DNA from: Dictyostelium discoideum
Lineage: Eukaryota
Length of the DNA stretch: 64,000 nt
NCBI GenBank assembly: GCA_000004695.1
Contig: CM000151.3
Coordinates: 1,024,001-1,088,000, forward strand
Direction of reading: 5' to 3'
Shown here: positions 3,888 through 42,555 of the stretch, piece after piece
Numbering within the stretch: the stretch's first letter is position 1
Layout of the letters: each line of letters starts with the position of its first letter
Made by a program: the position numbers and the translations under genes
The notes under the pieces: model-generated
The model's database searches: none
The model's input: the letters and a program-made list of their open reading frames with translations, nothing else
Told to the model about the DNA's origin: nothing

Positions 3888-4960
3888 CTATTTTATTTTA
3901 TAAATTTTAAAAAAAAAAAAAAAAAAAAAAAATATATTTTAGTATTAGTATTTTAAAAAATTGACAAAAATAAATTTAAATTTAAATAAAACCAAACACA
4001 TACTAATGATTGACATTTTGATTTATGTTTTTTAATTTGTTTTAGGATTTAGTTAATTGTTTGATTTGTTATTTTATATTATTAATTTTTTTTTTCTCCT
4101 TTTTATAGATTGTTTTTTTTTTTTTTTTTCATTTTTATTTTTTTTTTTTAAATATATTGTTTTAGTAATAATTTACAAATTTTTTTTGAATTTTATTGAA
4201 TGGGCCAATAAAATTTAAGATTTTAATTTAAAAATAAAATTTTTAATAAAATCATTTATACACACCAAAAATAAGAAAAAAAAAATAAAAAATTAAATTA
4301 TAGGAAATAAATAATAATTAAAATTAGTCATACGAAATAATATAATTAAAAAATGATTGTAAAATCGAATTGGATTGGGATTTTAAAATATAATTAATAG
4401 TGGGTTTAATATAAAAAAAGTTACAATTCTTTTTTTTCAATATTTTTAATAATAAAAAAAAGTATAAATTGGGTGTGTGGGAGGTGTACTATTTAAATTA
4501 TTTTTTCACATATATAAAATTACATTATTAATTATTAAAATTATAAAAACTATTAGATTTTAAAAATGACAATTATTAGTATGTAAATTATAGAATAATT
4601 AATTAATTTAAAACAAATCCCATTCAATATTTATAAAAATTATTTTCTAACAAAATTCTGTGTTTTGAATTATAATTTTTAAATATTTTTTATATTTTAT
4701 AGAATCAATATCAATAATTGCAGATAAATCAATATCAAAAACTAATTTTATTAAAATTAATAATGAAAATGATAGTATAGTTATTATGTATACAAATAAT
4801 CAAAAAATATCAAAATCAAGGGGTCAAATATTAGATTCCCATATAGTTGTAAATCCATTAATTGATTTTAATTTAATTTTTTAAAAAAAAAAAAAAATGA
4901 TTAAAAAAAAATTAAAATAATAAAAATAAAACTGTATTAATTTATTTTTAAAAATTCTTT

Positions 4961-5265
4961 TTACAACCCTAATGTAGCACCAACAACAAGACCAAGTATT
5001 AAAACAACCCCACCAACTAATTCTAATAAACCACTAACCAATCCTGTTTTTTCGTTTGACCCTTGAATATTATTTGGAGGATTGATTGAATTGTTTATGC
5101 TATTTAAATTATTTTGACTTTTATTTTTATTTGTGATTTTTCCTAATGAAGAAATTGAGTCTATTATTTTTTAAAAAAAAAAAAAAAAAAATATTAGTTT
5201 ATTTTATTTTATTAAATAATAATAATGTGGTTTTTTTTATTTATTTAACCTACTAATTATTGTCA
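4961..5265 (-). CDS. HssA/2C/7E-like small Ser/Gly-rich protein (family member 1), 2 exons
   Basis: Exon 1 about 5253..5265 (ATGACAATAATTA|GTAGGT). Intron to ...aataatag| at about 5161. Exon 2 about 4961..5160. Spliced product: [70 protein letters not shown]. The M-T/A-I-L/I-x-S-I-S-S-L/I-G N-terminus is the family signature. Confidence 0.45.
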
Positions 5266-6365
5266 TTTTTATAAATATTTATAGTTTTAAAGTTTTAAAT
5301 TTATTAAATTAATTTATTAATTAAACAAGTTGTTTTTTTTTTTTTTAAATTTTTTTTTTTTTTTTATTCTGTTATTAACTCTATTTATAGAGTAAAGTAT
5401 TTAGATTAATTTACTTGTTTGCAAATTGTAAAAGGAATCATACTTTAAGAATTTAAGATTTTAATAAATTTATTAATTAATTAATTATTTTTTGTATAAA
5501 AATTAAAAAAATAACAAATACTACATAATATATTTTTTGTTGATTTATTAATAAATTATTATTTCCTTTTCAAATTTAAACCACCTAGCCTACGTTTCTT
5601 AAAAAAATAAAAAATAAAATAAATAAAAAAAAAATAAAAAAAAAAAATAAAAAAAAATAAAATTTGGTTTTTTTTTTTTTATTAATACAAATATAGGTGT
5701 TCTCCAAAAATGTAATTAATTAAAAAAAAAGCGAAAATATGATGGTTTTAAAGATATTTTAATTTGAAACTTTATTTACCAAATAAAGAATCATTAACAT
5801 TTTAAGCATTTCGGACAGTAGCAAATGTGTACCAAATTAGTAGATTAAAAAATTTTTATTTTCAATTAAAAACACCAAAATTTTAAACCTTCAAATACCA
5901 AAAAAAAAAAAAACATTAATACTATTGAAATTACCAAAAAAAGGTGAAAGGAAACACTCAAAAAAAAAAAAATTTTGAGATATACTAGTTAAAATAAATT
6001 AATTTTTTATTTTTTTATTTTTCTTTTTTTTTTTTTCAAGTAGATATTTTAATCTAAAAAGTTTCTATTTTTGAAATAAAAAAAAAAAAAAAAACAAACT
6101 GTTTTTCACTACAATCAAACGTTTGGATCCTGGAATCAGTTTTTTTATTTTTTTTTATTTTTTTTTTTATTTTTTTTTTTAAAATTTTAGGTGGATCTTA
6201 TTAAATAAATTTTCTTTAAGATTTCCGGAACACCTGCATATAAAATAAAATGTAAAAAGTTAGATATTTTTTTTTAAAAAAGTAAATTGATTGCAACATA
6301 TTACGAAAAAAAAAAAAAATCTAAAAAAAAAAAAATAAAAACAATTAAAAAAAAAATAAAAAACA

Positions 6366-6410
<45 letters not shown>

Positions 6411-6509
6411 AAAAACTGTGAATAAAAAAAAAAATAAAAATTATTTGGTACAAGCCCCTGAAACAGAAAAAAAATAAAAAAATAAAAAAAAATAAAAAAA
6501 AATAAAAAT

Positions 6510-6545
<36 letters not shown>

Positions 6546-6562
6546 ATCAACAAAAACCAAAA

Positions 6563-7142
6563 ATGGAATTGTTAAAAATAATTATAAAATTTTTTTTAAA
6601 ATTAAGAGTTCAAATTTTAGTTTTAGGTTTAATTGCTTGGGCTGTTGCATTCTCGATTGACAGAACATTGGTCGAAGATTATAGAAATAAAAGTGATGAT
6701 ATTTTTACAAATGAAAATAATTTTAAAATGGTTCGTACAAATAGAGAGAGTGCAGCATTTATAATATTAAGTATTTTTGAAACTGGGTTATTCGGACTTG
6801 GTATTGGATTTTTTGTATCATTAGGATTTAGAGTTTTTAAAATTAAAAATAAAATGTTAAGAAAAAGAATGATATGGTGTTGGGCTGCCATTAGTTACTT
6901 TTGTGTAACTTGGTGGCCACATTCAACTTCTCATTTCTTAATTTTAACAACTGGTAGATCACCAATTGATAATTATATAACAATGGAAACTACTTTCCAT
7001 TGGACACTTACATTTTGTTCAAGTACTTTAGCATATTTTCAATATGGTAAATAAATTATTAATATTAATTAAAAAAATGAGGGGACAGGGGTTTTTCATA
7101 CTACCCCTCTTTTTTTTCCAAAATTTTAAAAATTAAATATTA

Positions 7143-38207: not shown

Positions 38208-39989
38208 TTATTTATTTAAATTTAAACCATTTAATAAAGTTTTAATAGTTTTATCTTTACCAAAAGTTTCAATTGCTAATGGTATACCACCACCAACAGG
38301 TGAACCTAATAAAATGTAACGTAAATTACTCATTAATTGATTTGTTTTAGTTGTTAATTCCTTTTCAGTTAATTGTTGATCTTTATAAATATCTTGACTA
38401 CACGTTAATTGTAATTGTTTATAAACATTTGCCATTGTAAAATCTTGAAGATCTTGTAATCTTTTAATTACAAATTCAATATTTCTAATTGAATCATCAC
38501 CTTTCCAAACTTTTTGTTTCATTTTAATTGCTTCTTCAGTTGTATAATCGATTTGATCAATAAAAAATGGTTTTAATAAGTTATTAAAATCTTCAATTAA
38601 ATGAACTCTTTCTTTAACACAGTTAATTGATTTTAATAAATATTCTGTATCAATTTCTTTTTTAAAATCTATATTATTATTATTATTAAAATATTCTAAT
38701 AATTGATTTTTAATTTTTAATAAAATTTCATTTTGTTTTAATGGATCATCAATTTGTAATCTAATATGATTAACATTTAACCAATCTAAACGCTCCATAT
38801 TAACAACACTACCACTCTTATTAATACCATCTAATGAAAATGATTCAACCAATTCTTTAAGTGTAAATATTTCTTTTGAACTTGTTTCTTGATCAGTTGT
38901 TGTTGTTGTTGTTGTTGTTGTTGATGATGTTGTTGATGTTGATGGTGACCAACCTAAAAATGAAACGAAATTAATTAATGCTTCTGGTAAATAACCTTTT
39001 GAGATGTAGGAATCAACTGAAACATCACCTTGACGTTTTGATAATTTTGATTTATCAGAATTTAATAATAATGGTACGTGAACCATTTGTGGTGGTTTCC
39101 AACCAAATGCTTGATAGAGTATGATATGTTTTGGTGTTGAATTTAACCATTCTTCACCACGAATAATGTGTGAAATTCCCATTAGATGATCATCAACCAC
39201 CGATGCTAAATGATAGGTTGGGTAACCATCTGATTTCATTAATACTTGATCATCAATTAATTGATTATTAAATTGAACTGTTCCTTTGACATGATCTGTG
39301 AATTTGGTTATACCAGGTGGGATTTTTAATCTAATTGTATGAGATTCACCAGACTGTAGCTTACGTTGAATTTCATCTTCTGATAATTTTAGACAATGAC
39401 GATCGTATAATGACATTGCATGTTGATTCTTTAAATTGATACGTGACATTGATAATCTTTCACTGCTGCAAAAGCAGTGATATGCATGACCACTCTTTAC
39501 CAATTTCTCAGCATACTCTTTATAAATTGGTAATCTTTCAGACTGCACATATGGTCCACATTCACCTGGTCTTGATGGACCTTCGTCATATGGTATACCT
39601 GCCCATTCTAAACATCCTGCTAAACTCTTTGCTGATCCTTCAACGAATCTCGTACGATCTGTATCTTCAATTCTTAAAATAAATGTACCATTATTCTTTT
39701 TTGCAAATAAATAATTAAATAATGCTGTTCTTAATCCACCTAAATGTAAATATCCTGTTGGACTTGGTGCATATCTAACTCTAATTTTATTTTCATTATT
39801 ATTTTCATTATTATTATGATTATGATTATGAATATGATTATGATTATCACTTGAACAACATGAATAATTTCTTTTATTATTAAAATTTAATGAAAAAATA
39901 TTTGTTGTTGATTTTAAAATTTTACTTGTTGTAGTGGTTGGCTTTATTAAAAATTTAATCATTTTTTTTTTTTTTTTTCTGGTAAACAA
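38208..39989 (-). CDS. Glutamate--tRNA ligase, bacterial/mitochondrial type
   Basis: 593 aa. Class I aaRS HIGH motif (PSPTGYLHLGG) inside the canonical RVRYAPSPTGYLHLGGLRTALFNYLFAKK...FILRIEDTD block. KMSKS variant KLSKRQG. N-terminal Lys/Thr-rich presequence consistent with mitochondrial targeting. Confidence 0.9.
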   Translation of the reverse strand: MFTRKKKKKMIKFLIKPTTTTSKILKSTTNIFSLNFNNKRNYSCCSSDNHNHIHNHNHNNNENNNENKIRVRYAPSPTGYLHLGGLRTALFNYLFAKKNNGTFILRIEDTDRTRFVEGSAKSLAGCLEWAGIPYDEGPSRPGECGPYVQSERLPIYKEYAEKLVKSGHAYHCFCSSERLSMSRINLKNQHAMSLYDRHCLKLSEDEIQRKLQSGESHTIRLKIPPGITKFTDHVKGTVQFNNQLIDDQVLMKSDGYPTYHLASVVDDHLMGISHIIRGEEWLNSTPKHIILYQAFGWKPPQMVHVPLLLNSDKSKLSKRQGDVSVDSYISKGYLPEALINFVSFLGWSPSTSTTSSTTTTTTTTTDQETSSKEIFTLKELVESFSLDGINKSGSVVNMERLDWLNVNHIRLQIDDPLKQNEILLKIKNQLLEYFNNNNNIDFKKEIDTEYLLKSINCVKERVHLIEDFNNLLKPFFIDQIDYTTEEAIKMKQKVWKGDDSIRNIEFVIKRLQDLQDFTMANVYKQLQLTCSQDIYKDQQLTEKELTTKTNQLMSNLRYILLGSPVGGGIPLAIETFGKDKTIKTLLNGLNLNK

Positions 39990-40189: not shown

Positions 40190-40263
40190 ATTTTTTTCTC
40201 ACCTTATTAAAAGTTGTTTTGTTTTTTTCTCACCTTATTAAAAGTTGTTTTGTTTTTTTATTT
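40190..40263. repeat. Tandem duplication of a 36-bp unit (tttttttctcaccttattaaaagttgttttg x2) abutting repeat R copy 1
   Basis: Seen directly. ttttttctcacc also precedes copy 2 at about 41346. Confidence 0.8.
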
Positions 40264-40264
40264 A

Positions 40265-40620
40265 TTGAAAATAATGAATCCCAAAACAAAAACAATTTAA
40301 AAATTAAAATGTAATAAAAGTAATATTAATTTAAGTTTTAAAACAAGTTGTATATATGATTGGAATAAAAGATGCATAAAAGGTATTGTCCTTCATCGTT
40401 AAATAATAAACAAAGTCTAAAAATTGTTAATGGGAAGGGTAAGCCAAACGTGTGAGTTGAAATTGGTCTAAAAACTAATTCGAAGAAAACCGTGGACTTC
40501 TGATGGCGAATGCCATTAGAGGAAAACAAAAAAAATTCCTGGGTATAATCAAAAAGATTAAACTCTCAACAAACTCATGACAAGCTGCAACTATCTCCAC
40601 CCAATCAAACAACCCTTTTT
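40265..40620 (+). repeat. Interspersed repeat R, copy 1 (about 350 bp, GC-richer than surroundings)
   Basis: About 93% identical to copy 2 (41400..41750) and, in reverse complement, to copy 3 (42065..42330). Shared core ...ggaataaaagatgcataaaaggtattgtccttcatcg...gggaagggtaagccaaac...gaagaaaaccgtggacttctgatggcgaatgccattagaggaaaac...ctgcaactatctccacccaatcaaacaaccc. Confidence 0.75.
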
Positions 40621-40627
40621 TTTTTTT

Positions 40628-40720
40628 TTTAAATATTGATTAATCAGTAATTATCCATTAAATAGACTATAATTAATAGTTTTATTTATGAATTTTAATT
40701 TTAAAATATTTAAAAATGGA

Positions 40721-40765
<45 letters not shown>

Positions 40766-40895
40766 AATAATAATAGCATTACTATATTTTTAAATTCTTT
40801 ATTAGATAATTTAAATTAAAAATAAATTGCATTAAAATTTAAAATTAAAATTCATATTTATTTTGTTTATTTCCTTTAATGGATAAACTTTGATT
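40628..40895. mobile_element. MITE-like segment bounded by imperfect terminal inverted repeats (attgattaatcagtaattatccattaaa ... tttaatggataaactttgattaatc)
   Basis: The two ends are reverse complements of one another over about 25 nt. The same TIR motif recurs at 41760-41797 and as a tight palindrome at 41965-42062. No ORF inside. Confidence 0.35.
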
Positions 40896-40902
40896 AATCT
40901 TG

Positions 40903-40945
<43 letters not shown>

Positions 40946-41209
40946 AAAAACTGTTATTTAAAATATATTGATTAATTTAAATAAATCAAGAAGAAATTAT
41001 CTCGATCATTAAGTTTATAATCAACAATTTTTAAATAATAAATAAAAGTTGTTAAATATATTTATTAATTTTTTTTTTATTATAAAACAAAATATTGATG
41101 GTTTGGATTAGTTTTTTTTTTTTTTTATATTTTAACAAAATACCACAATTTAGAAACACTCTTTAAATATTTATTTTTTATTTTATTTTAGAATTGGAAA
41201 CAATATGGT

Positions 41210-41240
<31 letters not shown>

Positions 41241-41399
41241 TATTTTTATTTTTATTTTTATTTTTTTTATTTTTTAATTTCAATTTCTCATTTTTTTTTT
41301 TTTAAAAAAATTTAATTAACAAGCACTGAAATCCAGGTCCAAATTTTTTCTCACCTTTTTTTTTTTTTTATTTATTTTATTTTATTTTTTTATTTTATT

Positions 41400-41750
41400 T
41401 ATAATGAATCCCAAAACAAAAACAATTTAAAAATTAAAATGTAATAAAACTAATATTAGTTCAATTATTAAATCAAGTTGTTAAATATGATTGGAATAAA
41501 AGATGCATAAAAGGTATTGTCCTTCATCGTTAAATAATAAACAAAGTCTAAAAACTATAAATGGGAAGGGTAAGCCAAACTCGAGAGTTGAATTGGTCTA
41601 AAAACTAATTCGAAGAAAACCGTGGACTTCTGATGGCGAATGCCATTAGAGGAAAACAAAAAAAATTCCTGAGTATAATCAAAAGATTAAACTCTCAACC
41701 AACTCTCGACAAACTGCAACTATCTCCACCCAATCAAACAACCCTTTTTT
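41400..41750 (+). repeat. Interspersed repeat R, copy 2
   Basis: Direct repeat of copy 1. Followed by poly-T and the TIR motif, as copy 1 is. Confidence 0.75.
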
Positions 41751-42064
41751 TTTTTTATTAAATATTGATAAATAATCAGTGTTTATCCATTAAAGAACAT
41801 TAAATAAACAATAATTAATAGTTTTATTTTTAATTTAAAATGTATAGTTATTTTATAATTTGTATTATTATTATAATTTTTATTATTATTATTTTTTTTT
41901 TTTTTTTTTTAAGACACCATTAAAAAAAATAGACTATGAACTTGCAGTTTTTTTTTATTTTTTTTAAATATTGATTAATCAGTGTTTATTTATCCACTAA
42001 AGGACAATAACCAATAGTTTTATTTATGCCCTTTAATGGATAAACTCTGATTAATAAATATACA

Positions 42065-42330
42065 AAAAAAAAAAAAAAGGGTTTTTGATTGGGTGGAGAT
42101 AGTTGCAGTTTGCCGAGTGTTTTGTTTTTTGTGAGTTTAACCTTATGATTATACTCAGGAATTTTTTTTGTTTTCCTCTAATGGCATTCGCCATCAGAAG
42201 TCCACGGTTTTCTTCGAATTAGTTTTTAGACCAATTCAACACTCAGCTTTGGCTTGCCCTTACCATTGATAATATTTATACTTGATGTATTTAGCGATGA
42301 ATGACAATACCTTTTATGCATCTTTTATTT
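42065..42330 (-). repeat. Interspersed repeat R, copy 3 (inverted, 3' portion)
   Basis: Reverse complement of the copy 1/2 core (gggtttttgattgggtggagatagttgcag...ctaatggcattcgccatcagaagtccacggttttcttcgaattag...). Confidence 0.7.
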
Positions 42331-42555
42331 CAATCAAACTTTCAAAACCCAATTTTTAAACACATTTCAAAAAATATAAAAATGTTCAACCTTCAAGATT
42401 TGCAAAGGTTTTGGGATATTTTTTTTTTTAATTTTTTTTTTTTTTTTTTTTAATTTTTTTTTAATTTTTTTTTTTTTTTTTTTTTATAATTATAAACTTT
42501 TAAAACAAAGTTGTTAAATTTTCCTTAAAAAAAAAGACTAAGAATTAGTGAATTA

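Follow-up and report, generated by a model that had tools for sequence, protein, structure and literature searches.

A cluster of probable structured non-coding RNA genes, with upstream DUSE and terminal T-run signals, beside a glutamyl-tRNA synthetase gene of Dictyostelium discoideum

What is the 34%-GC unit (hereafter R) that occurs in three copies within ORF-free, 21%-GC DNA of Dictyostelium discoideum AX4? The unit is located in a window of 64 kb, which is the whole stretch of DNA that was analysed. Each R copy has a G+C content of 34%, compared to 21% across the 64-kb window and 10-15% in the spacers. The first-pass annotation had described R as GC-richer than its flanks, free of ORFs, and without a tRNA gene nearby, and our results agree: no meaningful ORF was found in the R block, and a tRNA scan was negative. 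As candidate identities it had offered a solo LTR/ITR relic, a DNA transposon cluster, or a family of ncRNA genes with a conserved upstream element. We consider it highly likely that the R cluster is a family of functional, structured ncRNA genes carrying DUSE (Dictyostelium upstream sequence element) and T-run signals; this level of confidence does not carry over to a specific role in the cell. We read the block as three paralogous genes for one structured ncRNA of about 275 nt, two of the a/b-type on the forward strand and one of the c-type on the reverse strand.

A BLASTN search with positions 40270-40700 as query recovered copy 2 at 41401-41839 on the forward strand (90.5% identity over 442 nt) and copy 3 at 42336-42032 on the reverse strand (86.2% over 311 nt). 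The identity of about 90% or higher that had been given for the copies holds for the direct copy but not for the inverted one. The inverted copy is present where it had been placed (42065-42330); however, it extends further, to about 42352, and has a DUSE of its own. E values for the matches among the copies go as low as 1e-173, and the flank motif ATATTGATTAATCAG, with zero or one mismatch, is found inside the cluster only; chance is thereby excluded. Searches with nhmmer and a covariance model found nothing further in the 64-kb window beyond the three R copies.

The RNA predicted for copy 1 (a-type) spans 40345..40619 on the forward strand and is about 275 nt long; its terminal helix starts at 40347, and the predicted 5' end has a precision of about 5 nt. 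Copy 2 (b-type; 41475..41748, forward strand) is a recent duplicate of copy 1. Copy 3 (42075..42352, reverse strand) is a c-type paralogue; its terminal helix is GGGUUUU/AAAACCC, and the linker of its 3' strand carries a 5-nt insertion. A distal domain of three hairpins shows 100% identity across the three AX4 copies over about 80 nt. In copy 1 this invariant core is located at 40458-40545.

The cluster adjoins the 5' end of the gene for a mitochondrial-type glutamyl-tRNA synthetase (GluRS; 38208..39962, reverse strand), which has 100% identity to the D. discoideum AX4 glutamate-tRNA ligase and whose transcription points away from copy 1. Nine further R copies were found at the same position in four other genomes, all of them directly upstream of GluRS and all with a DUSE and a T-run: three in each of two D. 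discoideum-complex lineages (L001 and L008), two in D. citrinum (L002), and one in D. firmibasis (L003). In these orthologues, TCCCAAAA is located 76-83 nt before a GATTG block, and CCC plus a T-run stands at the end. When AX4 was compared to D. firmibasis by BLAST, query positions 6-361, which reach from the DUSE to the T-run, aligned at 74%, and nothing outside of them aligned; the similarity between species ends at these two signals. The a-type and c-type paralogues have both been retained since before the split of D. discoideum and D. citrinum, which suggests that both are in use. No homologue was found beyond group-4 Dictyostelium: nhmmer, a DUSE scan, and the covariance model were negative for the GluRS loci from P. 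violaceum, T. lacteum, and C. fasciculata and for the D. purpureum PEPCK locus, and pattern scans of JGI metagenomes returned 0 matches.

An exact DUSE, TCCCAAAA, precedes all three AX4 copies on the correct strand, at 40279..40286 for copy 1 and 41409..41416 for copy 2 (both forward strand), and at 42409..42416 for copy 3 (reverse strand). The published consensus, [AT]CCCA[AT]AA, is located about 60-63 bp upstream of the transcription start (PMC3188802, PMC7919456), and the element of copy 1 is an exact match to it. In the three AX4 copies, the distance from TCCCAAAA to the first base of the terminal helix is 66-68 bp. All nine orthologous copies likewise have a DUSE at the same spacing. Copy 3 has an AAATGTG sequence (42361..42367, reverse strand) downstream of its DUSE and ahead of the predicted RNA start; this sequence is kept in the c-type copies of L001 and L008 and resembles the TGTG box, a motif of Class I genes (PMC7919456).

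A different sequence, ttttttctcacc, had been noted before both direct copies. It was found there, before copy 1 as part of a 31-nt tandem duplication (TTTTTTTCTCACCTTATTAAAAGTTGTTTTG twice; 40191..40252, forward strand) and before copy 2 in the form TTTTTTCTCACC (41344..41355, forward strand). In all five genomes the core TTTTTTCTCA(CC) is conserved ahead of the a/b-type copies, at -38 to -81 from the DUSE; the c-type copies lack it. Because ttttttctcacc is absent from the c-type copies and its distance is variable, it is not the functional upstream element. The suggestion of an ncRNA family with a conserved upstream element was thus correct regarding the family, but the element is the DUSE TCCCAAAA, which had gone unnoticed, and not ttttttctcacc.

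At the other end, each AX4 copy closes with CCC followed by 12-15 T. The predicted terminators are a T15 run for copy 1 (40616..40630, forward strand), a T12 run for copy 2 (41745..41756, forward strand), and a T15 run for copy 3 (42064..42078, reverse strand; an A-run on the forward strand). The first two are the poly-T tracts already reported after the direct copies, and the third is their equivalent. CCC plus T4-T22 terminates all 12 copies from the five genomes. Runs of at least five T occur in 0 of the 12 RNA bodies, compared to 78% of the 270-nt segments of the window, so that every copy has the 3' oligo-T of a Pol III terminator and no such run internally. The c-type copies, and in D. 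citrinum both copies, carry the shorter TTTT close to their 5' end.

The same signals could be read differently, namely that the R family is transcribed by RNA polymerase II, like the DUSE-driven U1, U2, U4, and U5 snRNA genes, that the T-run is just AT-rich flank, and that the 3' end is processed. The DUSE is associated with Pol II and Pol III genes alike (PMC7919456), runs of at least five T are commonplace in the window, as the figure of 78% shows, and some of the copies contain an internal TTTT. However, in all 12 copies the CCC at which the terminal helix closes, or which adjoins it, is immediately followed by the T-run, no body contains a run of at least five T, and there is no conserved Sm-site-like motif. 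Transcription by Pol II appears unlikely to us. In the reading that we prefer, each gene is self-contained, with a DUSE 66-68 bp upstream, a body devoid of runs of five or more T, and CCC plus oligo-T placed exactly at the end of the terminal helix. Transcription would depend on the DUSE and would most likely be performed by RNA polymerase III, and the transcript would stop in the T-run, which would leave a 3' oligo-U tail. Pol III is not certain, because the DUSE also drives Pol II snRNA genes (PMC7919456).

We used RNAalifold to determine a common fold for the 12 sequences. The fold comprises 58 pairs, and the consensus was identical with 9 or 12 sequences. For these 58 pairs, 98.3% of the cells in the 12 sequences are paired, compared to 33-48% when the partners were slid. 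Two-sided (compensatory) changes were found in 8 pairs and 15 cells, and in 0-3 pairs of the slid controls; the 12 sequences represent five closely related genomes only, and several of them share changes by descent, so that fewer independent events took place than the cell counts suggest. The observed counts were reached in no more than 1 of 500 shuffles, and the covariation score in 0 of 500. The helices are held by compensatory substitutions, as is expected of a structured RNA. The terminal stem is formed in 12 of 12 copies, even as it switches from GUUGU/ACAAC to GGGUU(UU)/(AA)AACCC. The fold of a single R copy has a z score of -3.3.

In the predicted structure the 5' and 3' ends pair with each other and close a rod of four stacked helices. 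The 5' branch contains two invariant, apparently single-stranded motifs, UUCAUCG and AAUGGNAARGGNAARCCAAA. No consistent fold was obtained for this branch (columns 58-121 of alignment A5), and the search for a conserved pseudoknot in R returned weak alternatives only.

The covariation also bears on the possibility that the conserved block is not an RNA gene but DNA that regulates the divergent GluRS gene in cis. From the coordinates, the DUSE of the nearest R copy is located about 250-320 bp from the GluRS start codon in five of five genomes, and TTTTTTCTCA is conserved between both genes. Compensatory changes that preserve helices, however, are not expected of protein-binding DNA. Furthermore, the b- and c-type copies are 1.5-2.4 kb away from GluRS and retain their own DUSE and T-run, and strand-specific signals flank every copy. 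We regard this explanation as extremely improbable.

How do the palindromes of the cluster relate to these genes? The motif that the first-pass annotation had placed downstream of the direct copies is present after all three copies: as AAATATTGATTAATCAG...TCCATTAAA...AATAGTTTTATTTATG at 40631..40700 for copy 1 (forward strand), at 41757..41839 for copy 2 (forward strand), and at 42062-42030 for copy 3 (reverse strand). Its inverted recurrence, reported at 40868-40895, was found to span 40831-40897; in the BLAST search, query positions 347-430 matched 40917-40831. Together with its T-run (an A-run at 40898-40943 on the forward strand), this solitary inverted 3' flank occupies 40831..40943 on the reverse strand. 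It has no gene body: neither nhmmer nor the covariance model detected an R body next to it or a degenerate fourth one in 40918-41300. The tight palindrome at 41965..42062 was confirmed as well. Its left arm is an extra forward-strand copy of the flank, preceded by its own T-run (about 41945-41964), and the 3' flank of copy 3 makes up its right arm; the palindrome is capable of forming a hairpin (DNA fold z = -5.3).

In AX4 and L001 the flank or arm motif occurs in the cluster only, and it was not found elsewhere in the 230 kb of dictyostelid DNA searched. The flanks in D. cf. discoideum (L008), D. citrinum, and D. firmibasis lack it. What had been called TIR-like palindromes are 3' flanks that were copied along with the genes and that lie tail to tail between convergent copies, outside of the gene. 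Only two D. discoideum lineages, AX4 and L001, have them.

R and its arms could also be taken as a mobile element or its relic, either a solo LTR or a cluster of non-autonomous TIR/foldback transposons. Several copies lie close together in both orientations, a segment of 270 bp is enclosed by inverted arms of about 30-45 bp, and one of the palindromes is tight. Nevertheless, R is found at the identical syntenic position in five genomes, its conservation is restricted to the stretch from promoter to terminator, its base changes are compensatory, and the arms are outside R and absent from three of the five genomes. At one border of the segment between the arms there is a T-run, and at the other an A-run; there is thus no direct target-site duplication of the kind that the first-pass annotation had considered for this segment. 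No other copies of R or of the arms were found in the 230 kb searched, and there is no transposase or other ORF. We rejected a TIR/foldback DNA transposon or MITE, as the arms exist but have T-run/A-run borders and, within the 230 kb searched, are confined to the cluster in AX4 and L001. A solo LTR was rejected given the orthologous position of R in five genomes and a conservation that is bounded by promoter and terminator signals. On this evidence, the mobile-element identities proposed earlier are extremely improbable, and we discarded them. The first-pass annotation had named restriction of R to this locus as a refuting condition; with R conserved between orthologous loci, that condition carries less weight.

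If R is a family of ncRNA genes, as we think, does it belong to one that is already described? The Rfam and covariance scan that had been proposed for R matched no family. With Rfam 15 at gathering thresholds, R had no match in a search of the whole window. At E <= 10, the block, one copy alone, and the orthologue from D. firmibasis returned noise only, namely mir-590 on the palindrome, mir-208, rliE, SCARNA7, and CRISPR repeats.

A diverged version of one of the universal RNAs (SRP/7SL RNA, RNase P, RNase MRP, U3, or telomerase RNA) might have been missed by the Rfam models. The length of about 275 nt, the external promoter, the T-run, and the paired ends fit the style of MRP, RNase P, and Pol III telomerase RNAs. 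In addition, the GGGAAGG of the a-type copies resembles the start of CR-I of RNase P, and ACCCAAUCA resembles part of CR-V, as judged against the human H1 RNA. However, GGGAAGG is not conserved (the other copies have GGUAAGG, GGAAAGG, or GGUAAAG), and ACCCAAUCA forms the 3' strand of the terminal stem, which covaries, and is not part of a P4 pseudoknot. Without an Rfam match and with no conserved pseudoknot helix, RNase P and RNase MRP RNA were rejected; in a manual check, the RNase P/MRP motifs CR-I, CR-V, ANAGNNA, and GARAR were either unconserved across the copies or inside covarying helices. The same applied to the SRP helix 8 motifs and the H/ACA box. SRP (7SL) RNA was rejected because it had no Rfam match at E <= 10 and because R has no helix 8-type AGCA motif and no GNAR tetraloop: AGCA occurs nowhere in R, and the hairpin loops are GAAU, CUAAAA, and AAAAA. 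The manual check revealed no U3 boxes, Sm site, or telomerase template in R. The ends of Dictyostelium rDNA are reported to carry A-G(1-8) repeats, and R has no C-rich template for them. The SRP RNA and the RNase P/MRP RNAs of D. discoideum have been described at other loci, which also counts against a universal RNA. We therefore judge this identity to be very unlikely.

R can also be read as intron-like, AAG/GUAUUG ... ACUAAU ... UUAG/ (slashes mark the supposed boundaries). This reading was rejected because the supposed intron is the best-conserved part of R and the supposed exons pair together.

The DUSE-associated ncRNA genes of Dictyostelium (U snRNAs and Class I/II RNAs; PMC3188802, PMC7919456) share with R an exact [AT]CCCA[AT]AA located about 60-68 bp upstream of the predicted start. 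Many Class I genes also have a downstream T-run. Like R, the DUSE-associated genes are multicopy and clustered and stand out from the AT-rich intergenic DNA around them by a higher G+C content; the two ends of their RNAs, 5' and 3', form a stem, and structure is kept more than sequence. R differs from the Class I RNAs in that it is five times longer (about 275 nt compared to 42-65 nt) and has a complex multi-helix fold, and the 11-nt CCUUACAGCAA is absent from the block even when two mismatches are allowed; Class I RNA was therefore rejected as an identity. No snRNA, snoRNA, or SRP model of Rfam matched R either. The type-3 Pol III genes (RNase MRP, RNase P H1, 7SK, and plant and ciliate telomerase RNA) share the upstream-only promoter and the T-run terminator with R, and their RNAs of 250-330 nt have closing helices formed from both ends, as does R; in contrast, CR-I, CR-V, the P4 pseudoknot, and a template with pseudoknot were not found in R.

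Vault and Y RNAs of vertebrates and trypanosomes, small Pol III scaffolds that are bound by the TROVE-domain proteins TEP1 and Ro60, have a Pol III-style terminator and a terminal stem in common with R. The human vtRNA1-1/1-2/1-3 genes form a small cluster of diverged paralogues, and the R cluster is similar in this regard. The resemblance is architectural only, as R is two to three times longer than the vault RNAs (about 80-150 nt). By size and box content R was rejected as a vault RNA: it has about 275 nt, it lacks a box A, and the box-B-like TTCGAA is not conserved, with the sole box-B-like stretch, AATTCGAAGAA, changed to TTCAAAA in D. citrinum. D. discoideum possesses vaults, with MVP-A/B, a TEP1 orthologue (Q54CB5), and PARP4 (PMC13100048; PMC2116106), and the literature searched reports no vault RNA sequence for this species.

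Our best reading is that R is a scaffold RNA of a ribonucleoprotein, probably made by Pol III, although its function is a guess. Invariant loops and linkers within covarying helices give R the look of a protein-binding scaffold RNA in a stable ribonucleoprotein, and the presence of several copies would supply dosage. As a more specific and decidedly speculative proposal, in which we place little confidence, R might be the RNA subunit of a conserved Dictyostelium ribonucleoprotein. The top candidate would be an unusually long vault RNA or partner of the TROVE protein TEP1; failing that, R might be a lineage-restricted scaffold RNA that has no Rfam counterpart.

R may already be listed in Dictyostelium ncRNA screens. 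Its conserved blocks had no string match in the paper texts searched or in 57 supplement files of PMC7919456, and the R locus is not mentioned in the lncRNA transcriptome paper or the small-RNA survey. R is a conserved, structured, and multicopy predicted RNA with no Rfam family match, in a model organism as well studied as D. discoideum. The locus is compact, with three genes in 2.1 kb, each with promoter and terminator, so a triple knockout is practical; affinity capture via the invariant 80-nt core is likewise feasible. Should R turn out to be the RNA that partners TEP1 and vaults, or some other orphan ribonucleoprotein, a real gap would be filled. Otherwise, R would add a long member to the DUSE gene class and provide a clean example of two paralogue types that have persisted from before the split of D. 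discoideum and D. citrinum.

Gene callers have put spurious protein models across the cluster, such as a 99-aa call in L008. The R cluster is of use for annotation in that it exposes such models.

The repeat R in the Dictyostelium discoideum AX4 window is very probably a multicopy noncoding RNA gene family with a conserved upstream element, the third of the identities offered by the first-pass annotation; its two transposon hypotheses (solo LTR/ITR relics and a non-autonomous DNA transposon cluster) were wrong. The unit of about 275 nt is present three times, at 40345-40619 (+, copy 1, a-type), 41475-41748 (+, copy 2, b-type) and 42075-42352 (-, copy 3, c-type). That these are copies of one unit was borne out by direct reading, repeat finding and BLASTN, which matched 40270-40700 to 41401-41839 on the same strand (90.5% identity) and to 42336-42032 on the opposite strand (86.2% identity). 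The inverted copy is thus 86% identical to copy 1 and not at least 90%, as had been estimated, and it extends to about 42352 instead of 42330. Searches with nhmmer and a covariance model recovered no additional copy or fragment in the 64-kb window. Each copy has 34% G+C, whereas the whole window has 21% and the spacers have 10-15%. Checks for ORFs and tRNA genes in the block found no meaningful ORF and no tRNA gene, in agreement with the description of R as GC-richer, ORF-free and without a tRNA gene nearby.

A 10-base sequence, ATCCCAAAAC, is located upstream of all three copies, each time on the strand of its own copy. It contains TCCCAAAA (at 40279 (+), 41409 (+) and 42416 (-) for copies 1, 2 and 3), which we identify as the upstream sequence element of Dictyostelium (DUSE). 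Its consensus has been published as [AT]CCCA[AT]AA, and many ncRNA genes carry it about 60-63 bp upstream (PMC3188802; PMC7919456). The span between the DUSE start and the first base of the terminal helix of R is 66-68 bp. The helix ends at CCC, followed directly by T15, T12 and T15 in copies 1, 2 and 3; those of copies 1 and 2 are the poly-T tracts reported previously. None of the RNA bodies has five or more T in succession, which 78% of the window's 270-nt segments do. Transcription of R would depend on the DUSE, begin about 63-68 bp past it and end in the T-run, probably through Pol III; an snRNA-like mode using Pol II is unlikely. The predicted RNA product has paired ends, a 3' oligo-U tail and a length of about 275 nt. 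The c-type copy also carries AAATGTG at 42361-42367 (-), about 49 nt past the DUSE start, as do the c-type copies of a second D. discoideum lineage and of D. cf. discoideum; the a- and b-type copies lack it at the corresponding position. This motif corresponds to the TGTG box, which until now was known from Class I RNA genes in D. discoideum and its near relations (PMC7919456).

The minus-strand ORF adjoining R (38208-39962) is 100% identical to the AX4 mitochondrial-type glutamate-tRNA ligase (GluRS). We sought orthologues at fetched GluRS or PEPCK loci. In every fetched locus that bears R, it occupies the same place, directly upstream of the GluRS 5' end, with three copies in the second D. 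discoideum lineage, three in D. cf. discoideum, two convergent copies in D. citrinum and one in D. firmibasis. All nine orthologous copies have TCCCAAAA at equal spacing and CCC plus a T-run at the end. In D. firmibasis the far-side neighbor of R is PEPCK, differing from AX4, and R is still found with GluRS. The BLAST match between AX4 and D. firmibasis (74% identity) covers query positions 6-361, from the DUSE to the T-run, with no alignment beyond them; this confinement shows that it is the unit from promoter to terminator, exactly, on which selection acts. The c-type copy, marked by an additional AAACA-type insert and by GGGUUUU/AAAACCC as its terminal helix, is common to AX4, the second lineage, D. 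cf. discoideum and D. citrinum. The a/c duplication therefore predates their split, and both paralogues were retained. Searches for R beside GluRS of P. violaceum, T. lacteum and C. fasciculata, at the PEPCK locus of D. purpureum and in JGI metagenomes found no homologue. Within group 4 the gene order around PEPCK and GluRS differs through rearrangement (the D. purpureum and D. firmibasis loci, L007 and L003): in D. firmibasis PEPCK flanks GluRS on the opposite side, and in 22 kb of D. purpureum sequence the two are unlinked. The public annotation of D. cf. discoideum contains a 99-aa gene model (4271-6969 of its GluRS locus, L008) that spans 2.7 kb over the R cluster; this is probably an erroneous prediction triggered by the higher G+C content of the RNA genes.

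A single copy of R folds at -58.4 kcal/mol (z = -3.3), and the RNAalifold consensus is identical whether 9 or 12 sequences are used. The terminal stem has an outer part (GUUGU/ACAAC or GGGUU(UU)/(AA)AACCC) and an inner part (GAUUGG/CCAAUC); it is formed by every one of the 12 copies, and the paralogue types differ by a G-C to U-A switch. A rod follows (AGAUG/UAUCU, GGU-UUGUC/GACAA-CU, GAGAGUU/AACUCUC), opening into a distal domain of three hairpins: AAUUGGU/ACUAAUU, an 11-bp stem capped by a GAAU loop, with a purine-rich 3x3 internal loop beneath, and GGGU-UAAUC/GAUUA-ACUC. A weaker point is that the distal domain includes an 80-nt stretch identical among the three AX4 copies. In the 12-sequence alignment the 58 pairs are 98.3% paired; sliding the partners by 1-3 columns lowers this to 33-48%. 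Changes on both sides affect eight pairs (15 cells) versus zero to three pairs in the slid versions, counts that overstate independent events because the five genomes sampled are closely related and some changes are shared by descent. At most one in 500 shuffles matched these counts and none of 500 matched the covariation score; the nine-sequence test had a similar outcome. The 5' branch consists of invariant UUCAUCG and AAUGGNAARGGNAARCCAAA flanking a variable AU-rich insert; no consistent fold was found for it, and a systematic search returned no convincing conserved pseudoknot in R. In all 12 sequences the long hairpin with the GAAU loop has one strand complementary to UCAUCG and one complementary to AAUGG (R alignment A5, columns 60-65 and 99-103 for the motifs, 171-176 and 183-187 for the hairpin; window about 40396-40401, 40435-40439, 40507-40512 and 40519-40523). 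Judging from this complementarity, the branch may take part in an alternative conformer or switch.

The Rfam scan that had been proposed as a check gave no family match: in Rfam 15 neither the block, one copy nor the most diverged orthologue matched at gathering thresholds or at E <= 10. We rejected SRP RNA (helix 8 features are missing), RNase P/MRP (stretches of copy 1 that resemble CR-I and CR-V are unconserved or within the terminal stem), Class I RNA (R lacks its signature motif) and vault RNA (on size and internal boxes). Invariant loops and linkers framed by covarying helices point to a protein-binding scaffold RNA, which R would provide to a stable ribonucleoprotein, with several copies supplying dosage. 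DUSE-driven small RNA genes are a known class; this family was found neither in Rfam nor in the accessible literature. A published de novo ncRNA screen of the D. discoideum genome was reportedly designed for G+C-rich, DUSE-linked, sequence-clustered candidates. R fits that profile, and so is likely already listed somewhere as an uncharacterized candidate. Vaults, MVP-A/B, TEP1 and PARP4 are present in D. discoideum (PMC13100048; PMC2116106), and a vault RNA sequence was not found in the accessible literature for this species; a long TEP1/vault partner is therefore the most interesting reading. Our analysis makes it a long shot that R might be such a partner or another orphan ribonucleoprotein subunit, both taken together.

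The downstream motif AAATATTGATTAATCAG...TCCATTAAA was found as described, including its inverted copy near 40868-40895, as was the palindrome at 41965-42062 (single-stranded DNA fold z = -5.3). This flank motif follows the T-run of every R copy in AX4 and the second D. discoideum lineage. The R flanks lack it in D. cf. discoideum, whose copies share a different flank, in D. citrinum, whose spacer has T/A-run symmetry only, and in D. firmibasis; a search of the rest of the window and of 230 kb of dictyostelid DNA gave no other occurrence. Solitary units of T-run and flank without a gene body lie at 40831-40943 (-) and about 41945-42027 (+), and the palindromes arise because each faces another flank tail to tail. 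The second lineage has the same layout with a wider spacer. Inspection of segment 40631-40897 for target-site duplications revealed a T-run on one side, an A-run on the other and no direct duplication. The palindromes are neither a mobile element nor a conserved part of the gene; in the simplest history, the duplication that made b from a also copied a palindromic spacer lying between convergent genes. Spacer lengths differ by hundreds of bp between AX4 and the second lineage, which indicates that spacers evolve fast. The AX4 spacers contain an uninterrupted A-run of about 43-46 nt (40898-40943) and an (ATTTTT)n microsatellite of about eight units (41217-41262).

The previously noted upstream ttttttctcacc is conserved in all five genomes before the GluRS-proximal (a/b-type) copies, at a variable distance from the DUSE (-38 to -81), and is not found upstream of c-type copies. 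Its core, TTTTTTCTCA(CC), lies at 40191-40252 and 41344-41355 in AX4, where a 31-nt tandem duplication includes it, and precedes the a/b-type copies in the other four genomes, between GluRS and the nearest R copy. The DUSE is 250-320 bp from the GluRS ATG in every case, and the motif may be an element of a promoter region, about 300 bp long, that R would share with the divergent GluRS. The start of the GluRS ORF (39786-39860, -) encodes a His/Asn-rich low-complexity tract, HNHIHNHNHNNNENNNEN, ahead of the HIGH-motif region, through att/atg-rich repeats (repeat finder labels D13, I3-I15). In the GluRS search, a 1021-aa protein labeled Asterias amurensis (starfish) scored 837 bits, versus 787 bits for the P. 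violaceum orthologue; this could reflect assembly contamination or score inflation through low complexity.
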